Origin: Chloroflexota bacterium
GTDB taxonomy: Bacteria; Chloroflexota; UBA11872; VXOZ01
Assembly: GCA_964291655.2 (NCBI GenBank)
Contig: OZ219801.1
Span: 288,001 to 352,000, forward strand
Reading direction: 5' to 3'
DNA length: 64,000 nucleotides
Shown: one piece after another, positions 10,966-64,000 of the stretch
Position numbering within the stretch: the stretch's first letter is position 1
How the letters are laid out: the number at the start of each line of letters is the position of its first letter
The notes under the pieces: model-generated
What the model was told of the DNA's origin: nothing
Seen by the model: only the letters and a program-made list of their open reading frames with translations
The model's database searches: none
Program-made: the position numbers and the translations under genes

Positions 10966-12499
<1,534 letters not shown>

Positions 12500-12619
12500 T
12501 AGGGTTTTTTACCCATTCCCGCCTATCCCTTGTTCACATACTCTCTCCTTACAAACACCCCCCTTCATCACCCTCCACCTGCTAATACCCGCCTCACTCC
12601 TACACTTACTCCAACGAAT

Positions 12620-12654
12620 GAAACCCCCTCCATGAGGAGGGGTCTTTCAATTTT
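12620..12654 (+). terminator. Intrinsic terminator after 16S
   Basis: GAAACCCCCTC-catgag-GAGGGGTCTTTC followed by AATTTT. Confidence 0.65.
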
Positions 12655-12952
12655 GACGCGAAGAACCCCTACACTTCTCGCGACGAAACATGAGTGGCCT
12701 TGCTAGGCTATTCAGTGAATCCCAATCGCGGGCACTCCACCTCAAGCCGTCAGCTCACTTTCGCCTAAACCCTTGCCCAAGCCGTCAACTTCACCAGCAT
12801 ATCCGCCGTTAACGGGCTTGGCGCATGGCTTCAATCTGCCTGCCGCGCCCTGCGCGGCACAGTTGCACACACCTTCAGGCTGCGCTATATTCCTTCTGTG
12901 CCTTGGGTCTCGCGCCGTCCCCAAAGACGCAACGGACGTGCAGTGGGGCGGG

Positions 12953-12961
12953 TGGTATAAT
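12953..12961 (+). promoter_or_regulatory. Extended -10 promoter for the tRNA pair
   Basis: TGGTATAAT ~33 bp upstream of tRNA-Ile. Confidence 0.65.
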
Positions 12962-12993
12962 AGGGGATGAATCGGCGAACCCTGGCAGTTTGC

Positions 12994-13070
12994 GGGCCAC
13001 TAGCTCAGTTGGTTAGAGCGCGCCCCTGATAAGGGCGAGGTCTGTGGTTCAAATCCACAGTGGCCCACCA
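12994..13070 (+). tRNA. tRNA-Ile(GAT)
   Basis: Cloverleaf GGGCCAC...CTGATAA...TTCAAAT...GTGGCCC-ACCA. Confidence 0.97.
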
Positions 13071-13125
13071 TTGCAAGCAAAATCGGCTTCGCGCTGGTGT
13101 TGCGTTTCTGGTCTGATCGCCGCAC

Positions 13126-13201
13126 GGGGATGTAGCTCAGTTGGGAGAGCACCTCCTTTGCAAGGAGGGGGTCAGGAGTTCGAGTCTCCTCATCTCCACC
13201 A
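13126..13201 (+). tRNA. tRNA-Ala(TGC)
   Basis: GGGGATG...TTTGCAA...TTCGAGT...CATCTCC-ACCA; G3-U70 pair. Confidence 0.97.
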
Positions 13202-33078: not shown

Positions 33079-33198
33079 CCTTGGGCAACGGCCTATTTTC
33101 CCACACAGTCGCCCGTGAAGTATCGTCGGTGCTGAGGGGCTTAACTACCGTGTTCGGGATGGGAACGGGTGTACCTCCCTCGCCTTGTCACCCAAGGA
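33079..33198 (-). rRNA. rrf: 5S rRNA
   Basis: Reverse complement contains CACCCGTTCCCATCCCGAACACGG and GTGGGAAAATAGG; CCTTGGG/CCCAAGG terminal stem. Confidence 0.95.
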
Positions 33199-33436
33199 AT
33201 TCTTGACTGGAATATGGAAACGTGTCGTAGATGCACTGCCACGCAATGTGCTGCGGCAAGCGCACATCAAGAAACGACGCGTTATGTCAATGTGCAGTCG
33301 TGAACAATGCGCAAGTCTTGATTGAGTGTGTTTGGCGTGCTTGCACGCCAAAGATAGCTGACCAAGGTGAGAGCATTCCCGCGCTTAGAGAATGACTCAC
33401 AGATTGCAGAACTCCAAATTTGCCAATTAGAAGCGC

Positions 33437-36525
<3,089 letters not shown>

Positions 36526-51364: not shown

Positions 51365-51834
51365 TTACATACCCCTTTCAGGGGGTCCCCCTGGCGGGTT
51401 GTGATAGCCAGGCTTGATGCGCTTCAGACGGGCGGCTTTGCTGGAGCGTACCGGCTCCAATCCCTCCAGGACACTTTCGTCCCATAGGGCCAAAGGAGTT
51501 TCCCCAGCCTGTTTCAGTTCATCCAGGGCCTCATCGGACCGGTACCAGAGGAACCGCTCCAACAGGGTGTGAGACCATTGGGGAGAGCGCAATAAATTGC
51601 TCAGCCGCTTGGTGCCCGCCGGAGCTCTATCAGGAGATAGAATGTGGGCCCTCGGCTCCCTCACGAGCAGTCCTGACCGGCTGTGGCGCAGGCGGACCAT
51701 GGCGGTCAGGGCCAGGAAAAAGGTGCGCACCAGACGCCGGTCCAGCTGATCATCCAGCCACCCCTCCAGCGGCCCGATGAACATTTCCAACAAATTCGCT
51801 ACCGGTTGGGCTTGCCTCCGCCCCTCACCAGGCC
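51365..51834 (-). mobile_element. Truncated IS4-like DDE transposase fragment
   Basis: LDRRLVRTF, APAGTKRLSNLL, LWDESVLE; truncated at both ends. Confidence 0.65.
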
Positions 51835-51869
51835 CCACCACATTTGACGAAATCAAGAACTTTCACCAT
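51835..51869. repeat. 35-bp repeat, copy 2
   Basis: CCACCACATTTGACGAAATCAAGAACTTTCACCAT. Confidence 0.75.
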
Positions 51870-52056: not shown

Positions 52057-52173
52057 AGGCGGACGCTCTCCCCCATCCTAAAGCCGCGGGGGCCCGGACG
52101 ACTTCGCCCGGGCCCCCGCCCTCTGCTCCGTCCGGCTCGCTTGGGGGCGAGCCGGACGTAATGTTTCAGCGCG

Positions 52174-55100
52174 TCAGCCGCACTTGACGAGGACGTACTC
52201 GCCCTTGCGGTCGTCGTTCTTGTCTACGGCATCACGGCCGTCGTTGTGGTCGAGGAATTCCTCCACACCGCTGTGCTGACCAACGAGGATGCTGCCCCAG
52301 ACCCTGATGTCGCTGGTGCCGCCATCGCAGCCCTGATCGATGATCCTGGAGCCGGACCGGTCCAGGTCATTGGGGGCTTCGGCGTCAAACACGACTGCCC
52401 AGTTGTTCCATGCGCTGGACCTAGAATCTGTGTCCAGTTGGAGGGTGACGTCGGTCCACACCTTCTTGGCGAGGTGGACCCTCACCCGGCCGTTCTCCTG
52501 TTGCGAATACACGGTGAAGACGACGGCATCGTCCTCGACGACCTTGAGGATCGGGTTCGGCTTGGTCGACTCCGTGTCCTTGACCCGGAACTGGTAGTAG
52601 CGCTCGGGGTGGTACACGAAGTTGTCGTCGTGGGAGTTGAACGTCAACGGCATCCGCTTCCCGGTAGCATGATCCTTCCACGCGTCGCCTCCGAAACAGT
52701 TGTATCCGCCAGGCGTAAAGCATTCGGCGAAATTGCCCGTGTAGAGGTGCCACTCGGACTCTTCCCGGATCGCCAGCGCGCGGTGGCCGACCTCCTGATC
52801 CAGATTTTGCCAGGCCGACCATTGGGTGCCGTCGTCATTGGTCGCCGTGCGCACCTGGAGCGCGACCCGATTATTGCCGCCCCTCGTGCCGCTGTTCAGG
52901 ATCAGGTCGAACTGGTCACCTTCCTTGATCGTGGTGACACGGCCGATAGGGGTGTCGGCAGTGTTCTGACCGTGCACAACCGTCAACCAGACATCGGCGG
53001 TGATTGTGGTATTAGTCGCCCGCCAGCCATTCGTGTTCCTGGTGGCGTGGTACATGCCGGTGTCTGTCATTGTGATCGTACTGACTTCGGTGGTATGCAC
53101 ATCCGGAGCGTCCCAGCCGGCGCCGTCGGTCTCGTGCCAGACCAGCTTGACCGTGCCGTTGCTCCCGTTGGAGCCGTCTGATAGCCAGTCCCACGAGACC
53201 TCACAGGTGGCCGTCCGGTTAGCTGTGTTTCCGCCCGCGTTTGCACCCTTGTTGAAGGCGCAGACGCTGGGCTGCCAGTAGACGGCATGCCCGTGCTCCA
53301 GGTACATGCGCGCCGCCGAGGCTCTGCCGCCCTTGCGGATGTCCTCCTCCCGCGGGGCGAGATAGCCCCTCAGATGCTCACCCGACAGGGTGATGGTCTG
53401 CGTGCCGCTGGTGCCCTCCTTGATGGTGAACGTCGATCCGTCGCCATCGCCGTCCGCGTCGTCACCGAGTTTGCCGGTATTCCCGGTGACGGTGACGGTG
53501 GCGATGCTGTCCCGGAAGTTGATATTCAGGAGGTCGTAGGTGCCGACCACGGAGGTGCCGCTGTCGCCCACGTCGTGGTAGACCAGCTTGGCGCCGTTGA
53601 GGGTCGTGCCGGGAGTCCCGTCGTCGGTCAGGTTGTATGTGATCTGGGCCCGACGGTAATTCCTGTTGTTGAACGTCAGGTAGGGGTTAGAGCAGTTGTT
53701 GTCCAACCAGCCCTGGTAGGTGCCATGCGGACTGCTGGTGTTGCCCCAGGTGTTCGTGGCCACCCTGGTGGGGATGGTTTGGCCACCGGTCTGCGGCTCG
53801 ATGGTGATGTAGCCGCGCATCCGGCAATTGCCAGTGCCGACCTGGGGCTTGTTGACCCAGACGCGCACCTCGATCGTGCCCGATGTGCCTTCCTTCAGCC
53901 TGACATCGGCGATGAAGGCATCGGTCGGACCATTCGGACTGATCGGGTGGGGGACTACGGTGCCATTGTAGGAGAGCGCCGACTGCGCGCCGACGCAGAA
54001 GGTGCCATCGGACGACAGGCGCGTGCCCGGGTTGCACTGTGCTTCGACGCTGGCGGTGGCGGTGACGCTGTTCGTGCCGTCGCTGGCCGTGACGGTCATC
54101 GTCGCCGTCCCGGTGCTGGTGTTCTTGATCGAAATGAGCTCGTCCCACTGGCTAATCGTCGCGATGGGGTTGTCGAGCGTCACCGTAAAGGTCAGCTCGG
54201 CATCCGTCTCGTGGCCGAAGTAATCGGTCAGCGTGAGCTGCGTCGGCGAGAGGCTGGTGGAAAGGTTGATGGACGTGGGCAACGGGTTGTCCAGCGTCGG
54301 CATTGGCGCGGGCGGCGGGCCGTTGTGGAATATATCGGTCAGCGCCGGCGCGATTTCGTCCCAGATGTCGGTCCAGCTCCGCGCCGCCAAAGCTCGCGCT
54401 CTCCACGCGGGGTACGGCTCAATCGACTCCTTCTCTACGTCCTGCCCGAGCGCGAGCAGGACGCTGTCGTAGAGGTCGGTATGCGAGGAGAATTGGCCAA
54501 AGAGGGGATGGTTGCGCTCGGCCTCCACCTTGGCGATCAGGTCCTGGTAGGGAGCCCAGAACTCGGTGTAGGTCGGGGTAGCGCCCGAACCCGGCGCGTC
54601 ATCGTCCGTCACGATGACCGTCGCCGCGCCCTGCGTCGCCGAGACGGTGAAGCGCGGGTTGTCGCGCGGGTCCGGCTGCAGCGTCAGTGTCAGAGAGCCA
54701 TCGGACTCGTCGCGGTCGTCGTCCAGCGTGGACACGGTGATCGTGTTGCTTCCGGACGTCCCAATCACCTCCACGATCTGCCCGTCGCCGGAGGTGAAGC
54801 GGCCGTCCTGCGTCACCATGGCGACGAAGGTGATGGCCATAGTGCCGGTCGGCGCGGGGTTGGCGGTCACGGTGAAGGTGGCAGAGCCGCCCTCGGTGAC
54901 CGCTCCGCCGCCCACAACGCTGATCTCAGGCTTCGCAGCGGGAGCCGGCGGGTCATCATCGTCCGCCACGGTTACGGTGGCCGCACCGCCCGACGTGGAC
55001 ACGGTGTAGCCGGTTCCGGTATTCAGGGTGGCGGTTACCGACCCGTCGGCCTCGTCCACGCTGTCGTCACTGGTGGCGACGGTCAGCGTGTAGCTGCCGG

Positions 55101-56637
55101 AGGTCGGGATGCTCACCGTCTGCGCCCCGGTGGTTGCGCCGTAGTCCCCGCTCTGCGAGACCGCGACGGTCACGTCCAGAGAGGCCGACGGCGCCGGGCT
55201 GGCGCTGACGGTGAAGGTGGCGTCGCCGCCCTCGGTGACCGCGCTGCCGCCCACAACGCTGATCACAGGCTTCGCAGGGGGAGCCGGTGTCGGCGTGGGT
55301 GTCGGTGTCGGTGTGGGTGTCGGTGTCGGCTGCTGCGAGTCGCCGTCGGTGGAGCCTTCGCACTGCTCCAGGGCTTCCAGAGTGCGCGCCGTGCGGTCCC
55401 AGCGGGTGTTTCCAAGCCAGTTGGCGATCTCCCACGCCAGACTTGCTGGCATCGGAGTAAGACCTGTGCTGGTATCGACACCGAGCGCTTCCAGCACCCG
55501 GTTCCAGCGTTTGACGCCCGCCGCCGCCCTGGTGGGGTCGAGAGCGTCCCGCCAGCCGGTTACCTCGTCCGCCGTTACGGCGTCGTCTGGCAGGTTGCAG
55601 ACTTGCTCCGTCTGCTGAGCCGGCGGGTCGTCATCATCGGACACCGCCGCCGTGGCCGCGCCGTTGCTCGACGACACGGTGTAGCCCGTTCCGCCGTTGA
55701 CCGTGGCCGTCACCGACCCGTCGGCCTCGTCGTCGCTGTCACCGGTGGTCGCAACGGTCAGCGTGTAACTCCCGCCGGTCGGGATGCTCACCGTCCGCGC
55801 CCCGGTGGTAACACCGAAGTCCCCGCTCTGGGTAATGCTCACGCTCACCGACAGGGCCGCGTGAGGTGCCGGGCTGGCGGTGATGGTGAAGCTGGCGTTA
55901 CTACCCTCGGTTATATCGCCATCGCTGGCGATGCTGATTTCCGGCACGTCGTCATCCGACACTGCCACCGTGGCCGTCCCGTTGGACGTGGACACGGTGT
56001 AGCCTGTTCCGGTATTCAGGGTGGCGGTTACCGACCCGTCGGCCTCGTCGGCGTTGTCGTTCGTGGTAGAAACGGTCAGCGTGTAGCTGCCGGAAGTCGG
56101 GATGCTCACCGTCTGCGCCCCGGTGGTTGCGCCGTAGTCCCCGCTCTGCGAGACCGCGACGGTCACGTCTAGAGAGGCCGCCGGCGCCGGGCTGGCGCTG
56201 ACGGTGAAGGTGGCGTCGCTGCCCTCGGTTATATCGCCAGAGCTGGCGATACTGATTTCCGGGGCGGTCAGGCACTTCTCCAGGGCTTCCAGGGTTCGGG
56301 CGGTGCGGTCCCAGCGGGTGTTTCCAAGCCAGTTGGCGACCTCCCACGCCAGGCTTGCTGGCATCGGAGTAAGACCTGTGCCGGTGTCAACGCCTAACGC
56401 TTCAAGTACGCGGTTCCAGCGCTTGACGCCCGCGGCGGCTCTGATGGGGTCGAGAGCGTCGCGCCAGCCGGTTACCTCGTCCGCCGTGATGGCGTCGTCC
56501 GGCAGATAAGAGGCGCAAGCGGTCTCATCGCCCTGGGCGTTGGCGACGGATTCATTGTTCAGGAGCAGTAGCGAAATTGCCACGAAGGACAAGACCGCCA
56601 GACCGTAGAGGGGGAGCTGCCACCGTGAAATCTTCAT
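52174..56637 (-). CDS. 1487-aa secreted/surface protein with Calx-beta-like repeats, a repeated Trp-rich helical domain and a PT linker
   Basis: Signal peptide; four ...TEG..A.FT...DEADGS.T.TL...A.V.V.DDD repeats; two near-identical ~75-aa repeats; GGAGG RBS. Confidence 0.85.
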   Translation of the reverse strand: MKISRWQLPLYGLAVLSFVAISLLLLNNESVANAQGDETACASYLPDDAITADEVTGWRDALDPIRAAAGVKRWNRVLEALGVDTGTGLTPMPASLAWEVANWLGNTRWDRTARTLEALEKCLTAPEISIASSGDITEGSDATFTVSASPAPAASLDVTVAVSQSGDYGATTGAQTVSIPTSGSYTLTVSTTNDNADEADGSVTATLNTGTGYTVSTSNGTATVAVSDDDVPEISIASDGDITEGSNASFTITASPAPHAALSVSVSITQSGDFGVTTGARTVSIPTGGSYTLTVATTGDSDDEADGSVTATVNGGTGYTVSSSNGAATAAVSDDDDPPAQQTEQVCNLPDDAVTADEVTGWRDALDPTRAAAGVKRWNRVLEALGVDTSTGLTPMPASLAWEIANWLGNTRWDRTARTLEALEQCEGSTDGDSQQPTPTPTPTPTPTPTPAPPAKPVISVVGGSAVTEGGDATFTVSASPAPSASLDVTVAVSQSGDYGATTGAQTVSIPTSGSYTLTVATSDDSVDEADGSVTATLNTGTGYTVSTSGGAATVTVADDDDPPAPAAKPEISVVGGGAVTEGGSATFTVTANPAPTGTMAITFVAMVTQDGRFTSGDGQIVEVIGTSGSNTITVSTLDDDRDESDGSLTLTLQPDPRDNPRFTVSATQGAATVIVTDDDAPGSGATPTYTEFWAPYQDLIAKVEAERNHPLFGQFSSHTDLYDSVLLALGQDVEKESIEPYPAWRARALAARSWTDIWDEIAPALTDIFHNGPPPAPMPTLDNPLPTSINLSTSLSPTQLTLTDYFGHETDAELTFTVTLDNPIATISQWDELISIKNTSTGTATMTVTASDGTNSVTATASVEAQCNPGTRLSSDGTFCVGAQSALSYNGTVVPHPISPNGPTDAFIADVRLKEGTSGTIEVRVWVNKPQVGTGNCRMRGYITIEPQTGGQTIPTRVATNTWGNTSSPHGTYQGWLDNNCSNPYLTFNNRNYRRAQITYNLTDDGTPGTTLNGAKLVYHDVGDSGTSVVGTYDLLNINFRDSIATVTVTGNTGKLGDDADGDGDGSTFTIKEGTSGTQTITLSGEHLRGYLAPREEDIRKGGRASAARMYLEHGHAVYWQPSVCAFNKGANAGGNTANRTATCEVSWDWLSDGSNGSNGTVKLVWHETDGAGWDAPDVHTTEVSTITMTDTGMYHATRNTNGWRATNTTITADVWLTVVHGQNTADTPIGRVTTIKEGDQFDLILNSGTRGGNNRVALQVRTATNDDGTQWSAWQNLDQEVGHRALAIREESEWHLYTGNFAECFTPGGYNCFGGDAWKDHATGKRMPLTFNSHDDNFVYHPERYYQFRVKDTESTKPNPILKVVEDDAVVFTVYSQQENGRVRVHLAKKVWTDVTLQLDTDSRSSAWNNWAVVFDAEAPNDLDRSGSRIIDQGCDGGTSDIRVWGSILVGQHSGVEEFLDHNDGRDAVDKNDDRKGEYVLVKCG

Positions 56638-57249
56638 GACGCACCTCCCTCAGCGTCGCGGTCCGGGCGTGGGGTAAGTCTAGGTGTATGCAGGTTCATA
56701 GTAAGCCACCTCCGGTTCAGGTTTGAGTTCCTGTCGCAGCCAACCCTGGCTCTCCATCGGGTCATCAACGTCCTCCTTATCGAATAGCATTCTAATCAAG
56801 CGCCACGGGGATCCCCTGGCATCCGGTCGCCTCGTCGCGCGACCATTAGAGTATAGCAGGTTTCCAGCGCACTGACCAAACTGCGCGCCGATTCGGGGAG
56901 TAGTTTGGGCAGTGTATCATTGGTCAGAATCTTGCACTCTCCAGATTAGGATACGATCAATACATAACCAATGTCAATACAACGCAATATCATATAGATG
57001 GAGTCTTTGCTTACGCTCAGGGGGGCAGCCACGCCTGTGATATCGACCCAGCCTTCTTCAGACGTCATGTCCTGCTAACTCCTTACAAGCATAGGCTTGC
57101 GGGCTTCTACCGTCAATCTACAGCCATTCGGAAACTCTAGACATGAGTTCAGTTTTTCGGGCAACAAAAAAGGCTTGCACACATGGCCGCGAGCGGCAGC
57201 GCGCCCAAGCCCTAAACGCAAAAGGGGCCGCATACATGACCGACCAGAG

Positions 57250-57282
57250 AGAGGGCATCGCTCCATAGGCGATGCCCTCTCC
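57250..57282 (-). terminator. Hairpin after the helicase gene
   Basis: GAGAGGGCATCGC-N7-GCGATGCCCTCTC. Confidence 0.6.
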
Positions 57283-57296
57283 CCTTGTGTGTTTGC

Positions 57297-59681
57297 CTAG
57301 CGTCCAGCGCCGACCGGCTCGGCCTCCCGCTCCCGTTCCATCGCCCACTCGAACAAGGACAGCGACGGGGTCTGGGTCTTCCGTCCCTTCGGCTTGACCG
57401 GCTCCTCGGCCATGAACTCGGCCCAGGAGAACAGCGTCTGCTGCGGCTCCTCGGCCTCCTCGTGGTGGTCGTTCCCGTTGCCATTGCTGTTGGCGGGCGC
57501 GTGCCCGTTAACCGGAACCAGCTCGACCGTCGGCCCGATGCCGATGGGGTCGCGGTGACCGTTGCCATTGGCGTGGTGACCGTTGCCCCAGTATCCAGTA
57601 CGGGGCAGGCTGTTGACAGCGACCGTCTCCGGCTCGGCCTCCACCAGCTTCCAGCCGTCGTCCACCAGCAGTTCCTCGGCGGTGGCCTCGGCGTTCCGCG
57701 CCTGGGCGAAGACCTCCTCCACCGTCTCTGCTTCGTCGTTCTCCTCGCCACTGACGATCTTGCGGGCCAGGGCCATCATCAGGTCGTCGCCGTCGTCACC
57801 GAAGGCGGCTAGCCCGTCCTCCGGCAGCTCGCCCTCGACGGCCAGGGAGCTTTGCAGCTTCTTCGCCACCAGCTTGAGGGCGTCGGCCTGTAGGGTGTTG
57901 CGGTAGGACATGAACACCACTTTCACCGGGCGGGTCTGCCCGATGCGCCAGGACCGTCGGGAAGCCTGACGCATAACGTACACGCTATAATCCGTTTCCC
58001 CCCAGCAGATGGTTGGGAAGTCGATGAGGTCGAGTCCGGTTTGTACCAGCCTGGGGTGGCATATCAGGACATCGATGCCCTGCTTCACCCTGTCGGCGAC
58101 CCACTTCTCCCGCTTGTCGGGAGCCACGGCGTCGGCCTTCATCACCGCCACCCTGAAGCCGTGCCGGGTGAGGATGTCGTCCATCCGCTCCGTCACGTCC
58201 CTGGTCCCCGTGTGGGTCACGTAGACCAGCACCCGGCGGCCCTCCAAACGTTCCGTCGCCACCAGGTCGATGAGGGCCTTCTCCTTGGGGTAGAGTTTGT
58301 CCTCGGAGAGGGGCGGTACCTGGACTATGACGTCGCCGCTCCTGGGGTCGAAGACCGTCTCGCCCCTGGTGCAGCCGTCAGGGTAGGCGAGCAAGGTTTG
58401 CAAGTACGTAGCCAGCAGTCTCTTCGAGCCGGACTTGAGGGCCTCGGCCAGCTCCTTCCTCAGCTCTTCGAACACGGTGTCGTAGGCTGAGCGCTGGGAA
58501 TACCCCGTCGCGTCCTCCTCCGTGTCCATCGAGGACAGGAGTATCTGCTCCTCGTAGGGAGGCAGCCCCGACGCCACGTCGGAGAGGCGCAGGAAGACGG
58601 TGTTGCCGATCAGGTGGAAGAGCGCCGATGGCACGAGTCCGGGCCGCTCCCTGGTCACCTTGCGGTACTTGCGGCGCCTGCTGCTTCTGCCGTCCTCCAC
58701 CGCATCGTCGTCGGGCTTGCCGATGGAGTGCTCCTCGAAGCCGTAGCGCTGTATCCAGCGGTGCTCGTCCGACCTCTCGAACTCCATCCTGATCTCCGGC
58801 GAGAAGCGGTAGAGCAGGTGGAAGATGGTCGAAGCATAGCCGCCCAAAAGGGTTCCCGTTAGCGAGAGGGACTTGCCGCAGGCGTCGGCGAGGACACCGG
58901 CGGCGATGCCCTGAGCTGAGCCGCGAGACTTAAACTCGTGCACCTCGTCGCCGATCAGCAGGTCGAAGAAGCCCCGCATGTGATGTTTCACGTAATCGGC
59001 CAATGGGTATCTCTTGGGGCCGGACTTGTCGGCCTGCCAGAGGGGAGCGCCGCAGTCGGCGCAGGTGCGCTTCCTGCGGTTGAGGTCGGCGTCGGTCAGG
59101 GGAACGCCGTCCTTGTCCACCACCTGGGTCGTGCAGTCGGGGCAGCAGGGCACCCGGAAGGGCTCCCCCGTCTCCTCGTCCCTGACGAGCCTGCCCCTGG
59201 ACGTGGCCCACATATAGATGACGGCGGCCTTCCAGCGGTAGGAGAGCTTTGCTCTTTCCCTGCTCATCACGGCGAAGAGGGGGCCTGAGCCGATGGAGAG
59301 CTTGAGCTTCTCCAGGTCGGTGATGGAGGTGACGACGGCGGCCCGTGCCAGGGGAACCGTCTGCTCCACCTCCCGCTTCCACTTGCCGGTCAGGTGAGGC
59401 GGGCAGATGATGAGCACCCGCTCGAAGCCCGCCATGTACGCGGCTGCGGCTCCAATGAAAGTCTTTCCTGTGCCCATTTCGCCCACCACACTCGTGCCAC
59501 GGTGGATTCCGAGGGAGAGGGCTGCGCCCCTGATGGCATCGGCCTGCGCCCCCAGGGGAGTCCTGAGGAGGCGGGGCAGCTCGCCGCCGTTCTCCGAGGG
59601 GCGGTACAGCGGCGGGTAGGACGCCACCACCCGCTGGGCGATGGCGTCCTTGTACGTGTCTATGAAGTCTCCGAGGTTCAT
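57297..59681 (-). CDS. SNF2/DExH-like helicase with Zn-ribbon insertion
   Basis: GEMGTGKT, DEVH, LTGT, QASRRSWRIGQ; CPDC...CADC; AGGAG RBS before ATG 59681. Confidence 0.88.
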   Translation of the reverse strand: MNLGDFIDTYKDAIAQRVVASYPPLYRPSENGGELPRLLRTPLGAQADAIRGAALSLGIHRGTSVVGEMGTGKTFIGAAAAYMAGFERVLIICPPHLTGKWKREVEQTVPLARAAVVTSITDLEKLKLSIGSGPLFAVMSRERAKLSYRWKAAVIYMWATSRGRLVRDEETGEPFRVPCCPDCTTQVVDKDGVPLTDADLNRRKRTCADCGAPLWQADKSGPKRYPLADYVKHHMRGFFDLLIGDEVHEFKSRGSAQGIAAGVLADACGKSLSLTGTLLGGYASTIFHLLYRFSPEIRMEFERSDEHRWIQRYGFEEHSIGKPDDDAVEDGRSSRRRKYRKVTRERPGLVPSALFHLIGNTVFLRLSDVASGLPPYEEQILLSSMDTEEDATGYSQRSAYDTVFEELRKELAEALKSGSKRLLATYLQTLLAYPDGCTRGETVFDPRSGDVIVQVPPLSEDKLYPKEKALIDLVATERLEGRRVLVYVTHTGTRDVTERMDDILTRHGFRVAVMKADAVAPDKREKWVADRVKQGIDVLICHPRLVQTGLDLIDFPTICWGETDYSVYVMRQASRRSWRIGQTRPVKVVFMSYRNTLQADALKLVAKKLQSSLAVEGELPEDGLAAFGDDGDDLMMALARKIVSGEENDEAETVEEVFAQARNAEATAEELLVDDGWKLVEAEPETVAVNSLPRTGYWGNGHHANGNGHRDPIGIGPTVELVPVNGHAPANSNGNGNDHHEEAEEPQQTLFSWAEFMAEEPVKPKGRKTQTPSLSLFEWAMEREREAEPVGAGR

Positions 59682-59842
59682 GGTGTCTTTCTCCTGTGCG
59701 TAGTGGCCGGAGGACGACGCCGGGACGCAAGAGCCGCCCCGTGGGGGCGCTCGTGTCCCGGCAACGCCCCCAGGCGTCTGCTTGGATGTGCGAGGCACCG
59801 TCCTGTGGCGGGCCTCGTTGTGTGCGGCTCTGCGAGAGCCGT

Positions 59843-60040
59843 CTATGTGGCGGCGGGAATGGGCGGTCTTGCTCTGGCGTCCTCGCAACACCTTCCCGTC
59901 AGGTGGTACGCCCTCATAGGCGAGGAGACGGCCCTGCCGTGGTCGTCGATGTCCACCGATGCGGTATACATGGCCGGTTCGCCGGGTGCGATGGGCTGCC
60001 CGCACCGGCAGCAGGTTTCCAGTGCCATGGTCGCTTGCAT
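59843..60040 (-). CDS. Small Cys/His-rich protein (possible Zn finger)
   Basis: AAGGAGG RBS; CCRCG...YH...CC. Confidence 0.6.
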   Translation of the reverse strand: MQATMALETCCRCGQPIAPGEPAMYTASVDIDDHGRAVSSPMRAYHLTGRCCEDARARPPIPAAT

Positions 60041-60149
60041 TGTTTCCCTCCTTATATAGGGCTGTGTTGCGGCCTAAACAAAGCGAGGCCCGCCGGTTCC
60101 CGGTAGAGGGAGTGACGGGGCCTCGTGGGTGCGACTCGGTGTGAGCCGT

Positions 60150-61187
60150 CTATGCTGCGATGTCGGTGATCTCGCCGTCCTCCAGGTCGAGGGCCACCAC
60201 CGTGGTCTTGAGCCGCTCCCTGTGTACCTCCTTCTCCGGGGAGTCCTCGACCATCACCATCTCCTTCGAGGTGCGCCCCTTCACCAGGATGCGTCTGCCC
60301 TCGGATTCGAGGACGAGGTTGTCGAGGAAGCCCGCAGCCACCAGCATGGCCATGTGGCCGCGACGCAGGGGCATGAGCGGCCTGGTGCGGTTGTCCTTCG
60401 CAGGCCAGAGGGAGTCCGTTATCTCCGTGCTGGCCCACAGACCCGACCGCCTGGCCTCGGCAGCAGCCGCGACGGGATCGACGGTCCGGGTGGCGAAGAG
60501 GATGTCCCCGCTGGGCGAAGTGGCAGGGGTGTACTCCGGGTAAGGATAGGAGCGCAGGGGCTCCGGCTCCCCCAATGACCACTCCATCACCATGCTCTCG
60601 GCGGCAGCGTCGGGCACGGGGTCGGCCTTCCGATAGCCCATCAACACCACCTGGTCGAACATCTCCCGTTCGGGCACTGGGAACGACCAACACCGCATCC
60701 TGCCGTAGTGGGTGGACAGGTAGCGGGCGGAGTAGGAGAGGCGCTGCCTTGGCACGATGAACACCAGCAGGCCGTTCTCTGCCAGGTAGCGGGTGCAATG
60801 GGTGAGGAAGCTGTGCTCCACCCGCTTGTCTTCCGCATCCCAATCATAGGGCGGATTCAAGACCAGCAGGCCGAAGGCCCCGTTCGCTATCGAGGTGGCG
60901 AACAGGTCGGAGGCCAGGGTGCGGTGGAGCCGCTTCTCGGCCTCCTCCGCCCGGTCCCGGTGCAACTCGACGCCGTAGGTCTCGATGGGTATGGCGTTGG
61001 GCCGGTCGAGGCGTTCGGCCAGCCTCTGGAGAGCATCCCCGGCCCCGCAGCAGGGGTCGAGGATGCGCAGGGTCTCCCTGTCCCTGTAGTAGTAGCCGGT
61101 GGGGGTGTGGATCAGGTCGGCTATCAGGTCCACCACCCTCTCGGGCGTCGGGTAGTAGCCCCCTTTGGCGAGTGCAGCTAGTCTCAT
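60150..61187 (-). CDS. N6-adenine DNA methyltransferase-like protein (DUF6094 type)
   Basis: GYYPTP, LDPCCGAG, NPPY; AAGGAG RBS before ATG 61187. Confidence 0.85.
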   Translation of the reverse strand: MRLAALAKGGYYPTPERVVDLIADLIHTPTGYYYRDRETLRILDPCCGAGDALQRLAERLDRPNAIPIETYGVELHRDRAEEAEKRLHRTLASDLFATSIANGAFGLLVLNPPYDWDAEDKRVEHSFLTHCTRYLAENGLLVFIVPRQRLSYSARYLSTHYGRMRCWSFPVPEREMFDQVVLMGYRKADPVPDAAAESMVMEWSLGEPEPLRSYPYPEYTPATSPSGDILFATRTVDPVAAAAEARRSGLWASTEITDSLWPAKDNRTRPLMPLRRGHMAMLVAAGFLDNLVLESEGRRILVKGRTSKEMVMVEDSPEKEVHRERLKTTVVALDLEDGEITDIAA

Positions 61188-61216
61188 GTCATGACTCCTT
61201 TCCTTTGTTGCCGCTT

Positions 61217-61624
61217 TCAGGCGGCGATTCCGATGTCCTTGTGTGTTGGTTTCAGGCCAAGCATCTCGCCGATTGCCCGGTTCCTCTGGTAGCAGAGGAC
61301 TTGGTGTGTGCCGATGCTCTCGGCGCAAGGCACGCAGTAGGCGGTTATCAGCTCGGCGCGGTTGGCGACGGTGATGCGTCGCACCAGCACCGAGCCTCCC
61401 TCAGGGAGCGTGTGGCGGTAGAGCATGACCAAGGGGTCGCGCCGTTCGGTCTCCGTTGCGGGTCTGAAGAAGTGGGGCTGGCCTGAAGAGACCAGGTGCT
61501 GCGAACCGTCGTGACCGCAGTACCGGCACGTCTTTCCGTCGGAGCAGAACCGCTCCCAGGCCCCGTGGTTGCGCTGTCCGCGCCGTTTGCTGCTGCGCTT
61601 GGCCTTCCTAAGCGTCCTGTCCAT
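61217..61624 (-). CDS. Hypothetical Cys-containing protein
   Basis: MDRTLRK...CRYCGH...H...CVPC; 4 bp from the upstream stop. Confidence 0.6.
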   Translation of the reverse strand: MDRTLRKAKRSSKRRGQRNHGAWERFCSDGKTCRYCGHDGSQHLVSSGQPHFFRPATETERRDPLVMLYRHTLPEGGSVLVRRITVANRAELITAYCVPCAESIGTHQVLCYQRNRAIGEMLGLKPTHKDIGIAA

Positions 61625-61628
61625 CTCT

Positions 61629-62246
61629 CTACTCTCCCTCCGGCAGGACGAGCCTTCCCGACGACACCGCCTCGGACAGGTCATCCCTGAGCTTGTCGGC
61701 CTTGGGGGAGCACCTGTAGGCCGAGACTCCGACGGACTGGAGCGGGAGAATCTCCCCCTCGGCAAGGCCCCGCTCCCAGATCCAGTCGGCCCAGGAGCCG
61801 TGCAGGGGGAGCGGGCTGCGACGGTCCAGGAAGCGGTGATGGAGCGCAGGGGCCTCTTCTTCGCTCTGCGTCAGCAGCAGGAAGGAGTCCCGCTCGAAGC
61901 CGTACTCGGCCATCTTCGAATACACCAAGGCGTGCCAGCCGCCGGAACCGGGGAGCCGGGCGATCTTGGTCGTCCAGGTGCCGACGCTCTCGTATGGGAT
62001 TACGCAGCGTTCGTAGCCGCCGGTCAAAGCCATCCCATCCGCGCCCCTGATGAGGTGGGCCGTGTCCGGGGGCTGCTTGAGGAGGGAGGCCCAGATGGCC
62101 TTGAGCGCGGTCTGGGAGCCGACCATCGAGACGAACCAGAGGCCGTCGGTGCGGTCGTCGCGGGCGAAGGCGTCGGCGGTGGCCGAGAACCCTCCGGCAC
62201 TGATGGTGAACAGGTCTTCGGGGTCTATGACGTTAGTTGCGAGCAT
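61629..62246 (-). CDS. Hypothetical element protein
   Basis: 205-aa ORF with AAGGAG RBS; PLPLHGSWADWIW. Confidence 0.7.
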   Translation of the reverse strand: MLATNVIDPEDLFTISAGGFSATADAFARDDRTDGLWFVSMVGSQTALKAIWASLLKQPPDTAHLIRGADGMALTGGYERCVIPYESVGTWTTKIARLPGSGGWHALVYSKMAEYGFERDSFLLLTQSEEEAPALHHRFLDRRSPLPLHGSWADWIWERGLAEGEILPLQSVGVSAYRCSPKADKLRDDLSEAVSSGRLVLPEGE

Positions 62247-62343
62247 GTTGAGTCTCCTTTGTCGTGTGGGATGGGAACGATGCGCGGGGGAGCGTGTCCT
62301 CGCGTGAGAAGCCGGAGGGCGTGGGCCGCCCGGTCGTCGAGCT

Positions 62344-62874
62344 TCAGCGCATCAGCCCCCGCTCCTTGAGGCTGACGAACCGCTTGCCGCCTATGACCAC
62401 GTGGTCGAGAAGCTCGATGCCCAGGAGCTTGCCCGCCTTGGCCAGGTCCTTGGTGATGCGCACGTCCTCAGGACTGGGCGTGGGGTCATGGGAAGGATGG
62501 TTGTGAGCAACAACCACGGCAGGCATGGACTCGACCACGGCGGCCCGGAACACCTCGGCTGGCCTGACCACCGAGGAAAATACGTTCCCTTGATACACCG
62601 TGCGCTGGCCCAGCACCCGGTTCCTGCGGTCTAAGAGCAGCACCCTGAGCTGTTCCTGGGCCAAGGCGGACATCTCCTTCCCCAGCAAGTCGTACACATC
62701 GTGAGGGGTGTTGATGGAGGGCAGGTCTTCCGTGGAGCGCTCCGGCAGGGTCTCGACCTCGTAGCGCATCGCCAACTCTCCCAAGAGGCTCAGGTTGCTG
62801 CGCAGGGCTTCGAGTACCAGAACCTGCTCGGAGCTTGCGGAAAGGTCCTCGGTGGCGTTCTTCTTCCTGGTCAT
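62344..62874 (-). CDS. radC: RadC/JAB-domain protein
   Basis: EQLRVLLLD, HNHPS.DPTPS.ED, LLDHVVIG. Confidence 0.9.
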   Translation of the reverse strand: MTRKKNATEDLSASSEQVLVLEALRSNLSLLGELAMRYEVETLPERSTEDLPSINTPHDVYDLLGKEMSALAQEQLRVLLLDRRNRVLGQRTVYQGNVFSSVVRPAEVFRAAVVESMPAVVVAHNHPSHDPTPSPEDVRITKDLAKAGKLLGIELLDHVVIGGKRFVSLKERGLMR

Positions 62875-63000
62875 GTGGGCCTCCTTCTGCCTTAGGTTGG
62901 AACAAAGAGCGGGGCCGTCCTCCGGTAGATGGAGAACGGCCCCGTGTTTGGTGCGCCCGGCTGAGAAGGGCGTCTCGCTGTGCGGTTGTGAGGCTACGGG

Positions 63001-63375
63001 CTAGGCGAAGGGAGAGTCCTCCTCGGAGTGACCCGTGTCGCCGCTCCCGTTGCCGTTAGAGTCGAGGAAGACGACCTCGGAGGCGTGGACCTCGGTGCGG
63101 TGGCGGTTCTGGCCGTCCTCGTTCTGCCACGAGTTCTGGACGAGCCGCCCCGCCACGTAGACCCGGTTGCCCTTGCTCACGTACTCGTTCACCGCTTCGG
63201 CGGTCTTGCTCCAGCAGACGACGTCGTGCCAGTCGGCCTCGACCTGCCCATCCTGGCGGCGGCGGTCCGTGGCCAACCGCAGCTTCGTGATAGCGGTGCC
63301 ATTCGGCGTGTAGCTCATCTCTGGGTCCGTTCCCACCCTGCCCAACAGTTCGACCTTGTTAATCGTGCGTGCCAT
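63001..63375 (-). CDS. ssb: Single-stranded DNA-binding protein
   Basis: INKVELLGRVGTDPE, WHDVVCW, GRL; acidic tail DSPF. Confidence 0.93.
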   Translation of the reverse strand: MARTINKVELLGRVGTDPEMSYTPNGTAITKLRLATDRRRQDGQVEADWHDVVCWSKTAEAVNEYVSKGNRVYVAGRLVQNSWQNEDGQNRHRTEVHASEVVFLDSNGNGSGDTGHSEEDSPFA

Positions 63376-63517
63376 TTCGATTTCCTCCTGTGTGTGTAGT
63401 AGCGCGAGTCTTCCCGCGCCCGTTTGAAATGAAGCGGGGCCGCTTTCCCGTAGAAGGGAACACCGGCCCCGTCCTGCGCTTTCCGTCAGGGGAGCGTCGT
63501 TCTGGCTGAATCCGCCT

Positions 63518-63892
63518 TCAGCGAGACCGGCTCCTGATCTCGCCGATGGTCTTCGGTTGCCAGTACAGGTCGCGCTCCACGGCAGGAACGCCGCCGAACA
63601 CGGTCGCCTCCGCTAGCTCGTCGAGAGAGAAGTAACCGATTTCGCTCTCGAACCCTTCGCCGAGGCCGAAGCAGGTTCCGGTTTCCGGGTCCCACTCCGT
63701 TACGTACCAGGTCCAGTTGCTGAATGGGCTGAATAGCTTGGCGACGGCGAGCACGTAGTCGTAGTCCCTGACGTTCTCGTTTGCGTAGAGGGCGGGGATG
63801 GTTTCCCCCTGCTCCCTCGTCATCAATTCGTGTCCGCGCAGTCCGCTGTTCGCGTCCTGCCAGACCATCGTGGTTCCAGTCGCGTTGGACAT
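63518..63892 (-). CDS. DUF2958 domain protein
   Basis: KLFSPFSNWTWYVTE...FGL...EIGYFSLDEL...ERDLYW. Confidence 0.8.
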   Translation of the reverse strand: MSNATGTTMVWQDANSGLRGHELMTREQGETIPALYANENVRDYDYVLAVAKLFSPFSNWTWYVTEWDPETGTCFGLGEGFESEIGYFSLDELAEATVFGGVPAVERDLYWQPKTIGEIRSRSR

Positions 63893-64000
63893 GGTTTCTC
63901 CTTTCATGCTGTTAGATTGGGACTCTGCGGGGCCGTCCCGATGAGGGGAGACAGGCCCCGTGTGCGCTTCCGCAAGGGGAGCGTCTAGGAGACCCGCACG

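Follow-up and report, generated by a model that had tools for sequence, protein, structure and literature searches.

A structured unit of two hairpins, about 70 nucleotides (nt) long, recurs at fixed gene junctions of a single operon in a 64,000-nt stretch of a Chloroflexota bacterial genome (assembly GCA_964291655.2, contig OZ219801.1, positions 288,001 to 352,000; G000:C1:288001-352000 in our coordinates). This whole stretch is referred to as the window, and positions are given within it unless prefixed by C1 or by L001 or L002, two loci on C1 beyond the window's end. The operon is part of an integrative conjugative element of Dehalococcoidia and functions in replication, recombination and anti-restriction. 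The two-hairpin unit is a family-specific, low-copy and real structured signal, not a chance hairpin. Its features suggest that it acts on the messenger RNA (mRNA) as a punctuation element, namely an attenuating terminator, a protector of 3' ends, or both, a reading to which we give about an even chance.

Read in the sense of the genes (minus strand), the unit often follows directly on a stop codon and runs through hairpin B, a linker, hairpin A and a U/C-rich tail. Hairpin B consists of ACG, a stem of 5-8 pairs, a variable loop and CGC. The A-led linker of 2-9 nt leads to hairpin A, whose 5' side ACG(G/A)GGCC and 3' side GGCC(C/U)CGC enclose an apical stem and a loop that holds CUAC in 59 of 91 units and CCAC in another 19. 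These 91 distinct units make up the alignment used throughout, and samples of unique units ranged overall from 91 to 117. The upstream stop codon adjoins the unit in 47 of 99 unique units and is TAG in 83 of 98, while the next start codon lies a median of 35 nt past the unit (range 26-139, n=96). In the window copies the stems are nearly pure G+C. Four distinct hairpin-B stems occur within one element, and the stem bases are near-identical at all of its junctions. Over the 10 nt past hairpin A, the sense strand holds 38% T and 12% G, against a background of 15% and 33%.

Five copies lie in the window, all on the minus strand, and their hairpins were delimited by pattern and fold. In transcription order, the first (63927-63984; covariance model match 63913-63988, 58.0 bits) stands upstream of the DUF2958 gene, with hairpin A at 63927-63961 and hairpin B at 63964-63984 adjoining the TAG stop codon (63985-63987) of a Cas4/RecE-like exonuclease gene. 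The second, upstream of ssb (63434-63497; model match 63424-63501, 68.3 bits), comprises hairpin A at 63434-63472 and hairpin B at 63476-63497, followed toward 63376 by a third small hairpin and then a ribosome-binding site. The third, upstream of radC (62909-62973; model match 62899-62977, 65.6 bits), has a hairpin A (62909-62945) of 14 pairs on the minus strand, one of them U-G, a hairpin B at 62953-62973, and the tail TCTTTGTTCC after hairpin A. The fourth (60083-60149; model match 60073-60153, 46.9 bits) fills the gap between a methyltransferase gene (stop at 60150) and an open reading frame (ORF) of 65 amino acids (aa), with hairpin A at 60083-60126 and hairpin B at 60131-60149. The fifth is divergent (59790-59842; model match 59780-59846, 25.6 bits, E 0.0018) and lies between the 65-aa ORF (stop at 59843) and a helicase gene; hairpin A spans 59790-59818 and hairpin B 59824-59842, and its fold stands out from shuffled sequences on both strands (z -3.80 sense, -3.12 antisense).

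The initial annotation had described one architecture in six intergenic gaps. Five of these carry the unit by both the hairpin-A pattern and the covariance model. The sixth, a supposedly degenerate copy at 62282-62333 falls outside the family: it has no nhmmer or covariance-model match, and its folding is at shuffle level on both strands (z +0.38 and +0.18; -0.16 and -0.77 in a repeat test). The GTAGA loop caps reported for three copies are present in the sequence, and hairpin B abuts a stop codon in three of the five copies (59843, 60150 and 63985).

The distribution of the unit supports its assignment to one operon. A strict hairpin-A pattern gave 20 matches in the 3.47 Mb genome; five were the reported sites, all on the plus strand and within 4.2 kb, and the remaining 15 were scattered singly. 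An nhmmer profile iterated on relatives found 4 copies in the genome, all in this operon. The covariance model, R1, found five units, namely the four of nhmmer (46.9-68.3 bits) and the 59790 copy (25.6 bits). Across a sample of the class, 7 of 98 genomes gave matches, with 1-4 clustered copies in each. The 4.3 kb region has a full-length counterpart of 82% identity in one genome of the same genus, where the stems are kept and the loops changed. The profile, the model and the class sample thus agree with the earlier claim of a repeated structured signal confined to one operon of a conjugative element, and with 4-5 copies in the genome the signal is not a genome-wide repetitive extragenic palindromic (REP) sequence. 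It also appears to be undescribed, as claimed: the unit had no Rfam match at the gathering score or at E values up to 5. Conjugative elements of Dehalococcoidia were not described in any paper found by a literature search, and those of other Chloroflexota are likewise essentially unstudied.

To examine conservation of position, 80 loci encoding relatives of the DUF2958 protein were collected, and R1 matches were counted at E <= 0.01. Of 187 matches, 183 lie on the gene-sense strand; the other four belong to one locus, in which the neighbouring genes are inverted as well. All 46 syntenic loci carry units at the same gene junctions. Their shared gene order, otherwise rigid in every one of the 46, is primase, Rad52, DUF7007, exonuclease, DUF2958, SSB, RadC, 205-aa ORF, 135-aa ORF, methyltransferase, 65-aa ORF and helicase. 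Among the 150 best R1 matches, the position directly upstream is taken by a unit in 43 of 45 related loci for the DUF2958 gene, 44 of 45 for ssb and 43 of 44 for radC. The same matches place a unit upstream of the 65-aa ORF in 11 of 32 loci, with more among weaker matches, and directly upstream of the helicase gene in 1 of 28. The analysis defines a conserved cis element, a covariance model for it and five fixed junctions, in an operon that carries ssb, radC, a methyltransferase gene, a recombination exonuclease/annealase pair and a primase gene. A pattern scan of metagenomic sequence recovered the two-hairpin unit in none of the 80 loci among the matches listed, which were chance matches in G+C-rich coding DNA.

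The loci without units do not indicate that the unit is dispensable, a reading that was considered and rejected. These 34 of the 80 loci are anchored on a second DUF2958 paralogue, and no unit was found around that paralogue. The helicase gene is visible in 28 of the 34, nearly always at the left edge, which places the paralogue downstream of the helicase gene. Loci L051 and L041 lie on one contig. The second paralogue occupies this downstream position in several related elements (L029, L040, L041 and others) and is absent from the element described here.

Comparative folding confirmed that the two hairpins are maintained as structures. RNAalifold applied to the 91 aligned units predicts both hairpins, with five pairs that change on both sides, such as a hairpin-B pair found as U-A in 47 units and C-G in 39 and a hairpin-A pair found as G-C in 76 and A-U in 9. 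Paired cells make up 97.3% of the total against 94.1 +/- 0.3 in column shuffles (reached in 0 of 500), and fall to 38.5-55.2% when the partner is slid. Cells changed on both sides number 61 against 24.2 +/- 7.6 in shuffles (0 of 500), although the number of pairs with two-sided change (five) is within the shuffle range (131 of 500). Sequence relatedness inflates covariation tests of this kind, and the slid-partner controls are clear. The compensatory changes reported from the window copies thus extend to the family. An additional tertiary pairing barely exceeds shuffles and is retained as a lead: a UAGA straddling the 5' base of hairpin B (alignment columns 2-5) is complementary to UCUA of the hairpin-A loop (columns 61-64) in 39 of 91 units, as between window positions 63985-63988 and the hairpin-A loop of the same copy. 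One unit carries the matching change UGGA/UCCA, and at the radC junction the interaction is lost, with 1-2 of 4 pairs formed. Overall, 271 of its cells are paired against 262.7 +/- 3.0 in shuffles, a value reached by 7 of 2000.

From the structure, conservation, position and orientation of the unit we infer the following mechanism. Once the upstream cistron is transcribed, two structures would fold in the RNA: hairpin B, directly behind the stop codon, and then hairpin A, which is strong and runs into the U/C-rich tail. The folded unit could then act as a leaky intrinsic terminator, or attenuator. Alternatively or additionally, it could shield the upstream cistron's 3' end once the transcript has been cleaved in the U-rich tail. 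Neighbouring genes would in consequence be expressed at different levels, and unscheduled read-through would be blocked. Intercistronic processing sites have a precedent in the RNase III sites between phage T7 genes.

The points in favour of mRNA punctuation are the gene-sense orientation, the position in intercistronic gaps, the T-rich tail and the strand signal of hairpin A; in each copy, as expected of an intrinsic terminator, a G+C-rich hairpin of the sense strand lies downstream of a gene. The consensus fold of the 91 units reaches -21.2 kcal/mol in sense and -13.6 in antisense, and the fold of the reverse complement loses the apical stem of hairpin A. At the four pairs of that apical stem, U-G cells number 42, 44, 16 and 7 (109), against 10, 0, 0 and 1 C-A cells (11). 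Among 74 unique hairpin-A cores, 30 form more pairs on the sense strand and 18 on the antisense strand, with 26 ties, and G-U pairs number 62 in sense and 40 in antisense. Other hairpins of the operon also favour the sense strand. A 20-pair hairpin between the rad52-like and DUF7007 genes (L001:5768-5810, minus strand), which is not of the B-plus-A family, is continuous only in sense, its plus-strand fold being broken by internal loops. At 52085-52160 (minus strand), past the stop codon of a 1487-aa gene that ends the operon, two tandem GC-rich hairpins followed by GGCUUUAGG show a unit-like architecture at the expected place for a terminator and fold at -78.0 kcal/mol in sense and -68.9 in antisense with the same parameters.

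These results bear on the initial annotation's proposal that the unit folds on the template strand. The consensus fold and the apical stem favour the mRNA strand, the lower stems and hairpin B are unbiased, the energies differ little, and the G-T at the stem base never covaries, so that the proposal is not upheld. Its observation that imperfect pairs are G-T on the plus strand was accurate for every closing pair and for hairpin B of the copies at 63434 and 63927. It does not extend to hairpin A of the copies at 60083, 62909 and 63927 or to hairpin B of the 60083 copy, which carry G-U on the minus (mRNA) strand. In total, four internal wobbles of the window copies are of the mRNA strand and three of the plus strand, these last confined to the B hairpins of the copies at 63434 and 63927. 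The folding strand is poorly judged from a few G-T pairs in one sequence, and with 91 relatives the signal largely vanishes or reverses.

Several observations weigh against mRNA punctuation. A plain terminator accounts neither for the invariant A and C found at the base of each stem nor for the conservation of the loop. The junction before the DUF2958 gene lacks a T-rich tail, and a terminator scan (at least 5 T in 8) recovered only two of the units, 62909 through its hairpin A and 60083 through a fragment of 5 pairs, with 5 sites in 8 kb in total against 4.0 +/- 2.2 in shuffles. At the operon ends of related elements, hairpins are followed by clear U-runs, in comparison with which the unit tails are weak; the units would for this reason be poor terminators. 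No antiterminator-type Pfam match was found among the scanned ORFs of the element, in which several upstream ORFs have no family. Hairpin B has no sense bias (17 G-U in sense and 21 in antisense among 69 unique cores), nor do the ungapped lower stems, whose distinct wobble states number 10+9 in sense and 9+13 in antisense. The plus strand is also the more stable one in 94 of 117 units folded with flanks (mean 3.6 kcal/mol) and in 68 of 91 folded without them (mean 2.0 kcal/mol), an advantage that stems mainly from the closing G-U pairs and the hairpin-B loops. With DNA parameters the strand difference is 0.3 kcal/mol; the units then reach about -20 kcal/mol on either strand, a property shared by all palindromes and uninformative here.

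The closest known arrangement, by analogy, is that of many intrinsic terminators within a conjugation operon, bypassed by processive antitermination. The pLS20 conjugation operon contains more than 20 internal intrinsic terminators that are read through by means of conAn (PMC8955417), and Tn916 has the internal terminators T1, the adjacent T2a/T2b and T3, together with the canT antiterminator (PMC11658703). The units described here likewise recur behind genes of one long conjugative operon, in sense orientation and with a pyrimidine/U-rich tail, and their double hairpins resemble the adjacent T2a and T2b. Unlike those terminators, they form one sequence family with invariant ACG/CGC stem bases, a conserved CUAC loop and a constant second hairpin that follows the stop codon. 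Their U-tract is weak and is missing from one junction, and neither the Pfam nor the Rfam scan of the element brought up an antiterminator. Another parallel exists in the protective intercistronic stem-loops of Escherichia coli, stable and conserved structures implicated in differential mRNA decay and in operon stoichiometry that can end or protect mRNA segments (PMC5927463). The E. coli structures are mostly within coding regions and mutually unrelated, whereas here one repeated two-hairpin module fills the gaps. If the units are attenuators or processing sites, the multi-terminator design of Firmicutes plasmids and Tn916 would reach a distant phylum in a more stereotyped form. What goes beyond the known terminator arrays is the stereotyped two-hairpin module with its invariant stem bases and conserved loop, which suggests recognition by a factor.

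Recognition by a factor of the element or the host, for example an antitermination or processing factor, is suggested because the stem bases ACG and CGC are invariant and the CUAC loop of hairpin A is conserved. A more specific version, possible but in our view doubtful, is that the unit is a dedicated recognition module, read by an element-encoded factor, that punctuates the establishment operon. Its two stems would share the same invariant non-Watson-Crick base, A opposite C in RNA and G-T in the template DNA, and be combined with the CUAC/GTAG loop. Such a module might work on the RNA, within an antitermination or processing system specific to the family, or on the incoming single strand, as regularly spaced sites of priming or loading for the DnaG-like primase of the element. 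If real, it would give conjugative elements of an uncultured phylum a layer of control that is new and private to the element.

The second of these options leads to a signal in single-stranded DNA (ssDNA), which we consider unlikely. Following the earlier idea of a priming site, the unit would fold on the template (plus) strand, if that is the strand transferred, within SSB-coated DNA in the recipient, and would prime the complementary strand through the DnaG-like primase of the element or a host primase, or load a protein, at intervals of roughly 0.5-3 kb. The closing pair of the two hairpins speaks for it, being G-T on the plus strand and an A/C mismatch in the mRNA in 88 and 90 of the 91 units, respectively. 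This closing position never covaries, with three A-U cases and never G-C, and the G-T is for this reason treated as a conserved sequence feature and not as a demonstrated pair. Of 91 hairpin-B cores, 64 are more stable on the plus strand and 22 on the sense strand, a slight advantage (mean 0.7 kcal/mol). The apical stem of hairpin A degrades on the plus strand. Among the 91 aligned units, 20 of 32 four-base loops read G-N-N-A on the plus strand, a loop type described as very stable in DNA (PMC13037366); the T-rich tail of the sense strand is left unexplained. The operon also encodes a DnaG-like primase, SSB and Rad52, a gene set like that of plasmid leading regions, whose genes are transcribed from the transferred strand (PMC11541004).

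Known primase-directing sites share further features with the unit. Hairpins that escape SSB guide primase in phage G4, and the RepB' primase of RSF1010 recognises the hairpin base in ssiA (PMC13037366). For the second strand of ICEBs1, routes through an element-encoded and a host primase have been reviewed together with second-strand origins in integrative and conjugative elements (PMC4595007). The G4 origin, ssiA/ssiB of RSF1010 and sso1 of ICEBs1 consist, as does the unit, of two or three stable hairpins in a row (PMC13037366, PMC4595007), and the element described here encodes its own primase. Compared by description, these sites occur once or twice per replicon, unlike the at least five units per operon at gene junctions, which also lack a conserved start trinucleotide. 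A conserved CTA primase start was proposed and rejected: next to hairpin B, the plus strand retains CTA only at stop codons, and the triplet at the ssb and radC junctions varies (TAG, CAG, AAG, CGG, TGG, GCG, TCG and others). If the units do act on ssDNA, they would have no precedent as priming or loading sites that occur in multiple copies and are linked to gene junctions.

A DNA-level element that uses both strands or neither, such as a hot spot of recombination and module exchange or a cruciform for a DNA-binding protein, is quite improbable. It would account for the parity of sense and antisense wobbles in the lower stems and hairpin B and for the near-identical stem bases at all junctions of one element, and some relatives do carry an added ORF between the DUF2958 and ssb genes or, in L035, an insert of about 2.7 kb before radC. 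The rigid gene order of the 46 syntenic loci is nevertheless at odds with module exchange, the four hairpin-B stems per element argue against one sequence-specific duplex binder, and the sense-strand biases of the tail and the apical stem are left unexplained.

Even less probable is a template-strand ssDNA promoter of the hairpin type from which each downstream gene would be transcribed early, in the manner of Frpo or of the promoters of the phage N4 virion RNA polymerase. In its favour, start codons follow the units at 26-139 nt, repeated single-strand promoters have been described ahead of leading genes (PMC11541004), and the hairpin promoters of phage N4 lack sigma-70 boxes (PMC13037366). 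Frpo itself is a long hairpin that rebuilds a -35 box (TTGACA), a -10 box (TATAAT) and an A+T-rich UP element, and like ssi sites it resembles the unit in being structured, repeated and placed ahead of ssb and the establishment genes nearby (PMC11541004). The unit is set apart from Frpo by description, having no -35 or -10 box, about 70 nt of G+C-rich stems and no preference for template folding. In agreement with the reported lack of obvious sigma-70 boxes, promoter-like sites are absent from every unit on both strands; between 56000 and 64000 only three -35/-10-like sites were found, all at 56850-57116 before the 1487-aa ORF. The almost pure G+C composition of the stems also speaks against a promoter. 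No single-subunit RNA polymerase was recognised among the ORFs of the element, the 1487-aa ORF having no family, and the strand arguments against the priming site apply equally here.

REP sequences and bacterial interspersed mosaic elements (BIMEs) are, like the unit, short G+C-rich palindromes between co-directional genes, and the tetranucleotide kept beside REP stems is GTAG, which is also how the loop motif of the unit reads on the plus strand. Unlike the high-copy, genome-wide REP, the unit numbers 4-5 per genome and stays within a single mobile element. A selfish or decaying repeat of the REP type or of the miniature inverted-repeat transposable element (MITE) type, without function for its host element, is hence the least credible explanation: the short palindromic form and the one degenerate look-alike at 62282-62333 fit it, and the single-operon location in the genome, the sparse, clustered occurrence across the class, the fixed junctions and the compensatory changes that maintain the stems all contradict it.

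The genes punctuated by the units are co-directional and span 52174-63907 on the minus strand (ORF list and family matches); every ORF from 52174 to 64000 is on this strand. By family matches, the DUF2958 gene (63518-63907) is the first in transcription order within the window and is followed by the SSB gene (63001-63375) and the RadC gene (62344-62874). The 205-aa and then the 135-aa ORF, taken from the ORF list, separate radC from a DUF6094-type methyltransferase gene (60150-61187). The 65-aa ORF, with its stop at 59843, comes next, and then a ResIII/Helicase_C helicase gene (57297-59681). A further hairpin, long and imperfect with 33-nt arms (59706-59775, minus strand, identified by folding), closely precedes the helicase start codon and is not of the B-plus-A family. 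The last gene of the operon is the 1487-aa ORF (52174-56637), which has no Pfam or NCBIfam match and a match to a single PHROG of unknown function (phrog_19495, E 1.5e-15).

Past the end of the window the same-strand operon extends through genes for the Cas4/RecE-like exonuclease, a DUF7007 protein, a Rad52-family annealase and a DnaG-like primase. A group II intron is inserted in this part of the operon, upstream of the exonuclease gene in the sense of transcription (L001:2140-4900, C1:353140-355900). It contains an ORF with RVT_1 and GIIM domains by Pfam, corresponding to reverse transcriptase and maturase (L001:2299-4035, minus strand), and an Rfam match to Intron_gpII (L001:2196-2296, minus strand). 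Farther on, the opposite strand encodes TrbL/VirB6-, VirB4- and coupling-protein-like genes, a protein of the Replication-relaxation family, a ribbon-helix-helix protein and a large serine recombinase. Integron attC sites were considered as well; the sole recombinase seen in the element is this serine recombinase. The candidate relaxase is the protein that matches the Pfam family Replication-relaxation, for which a literature search gave no information on an origin of transfer (oriT) or nick site. The G+C content climbs from about 0.58 to 0.63-0.69 across roughly C1:338000-378000.

A transfer RNA (tRNA) gene at the right edge of this high-G+C block (L002:5910-5982, C1:376910-376982, minus strand) overlaps the called ORF of the large serine recombinase at its 3' end and may be the integration site. 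A search for a direct repeat of at least 14 nt linking the left end of the element to this right-end tRNA gene found none. On the left, the element seems to end or to be cut short near window position 52100, as suggested by the missing second DUF2958 paralogue and by the terminator-like tandem hairpins after the 1487-aa gene; a 163-aa ORF that follows this gene (51365-51856) is unrelated to the paralogue. Rfam searches over the remaining 40 kb of the element returned only the group II intron and the tRNA. An IS481-like transposase gene (rve, HTH_32 and LZ_Tnp_IS481 domains) lies at L002:8569-9762 on the minus strand, just outside the right end of the element. Elsewhere in the window, the ribosomal RNA (rRNA) genes are unlinked, with 16S and then two tRNA genes on the plus strand and 23S-5S about 20 kb away on the minus strand (10966-13198 and 33080-36525).

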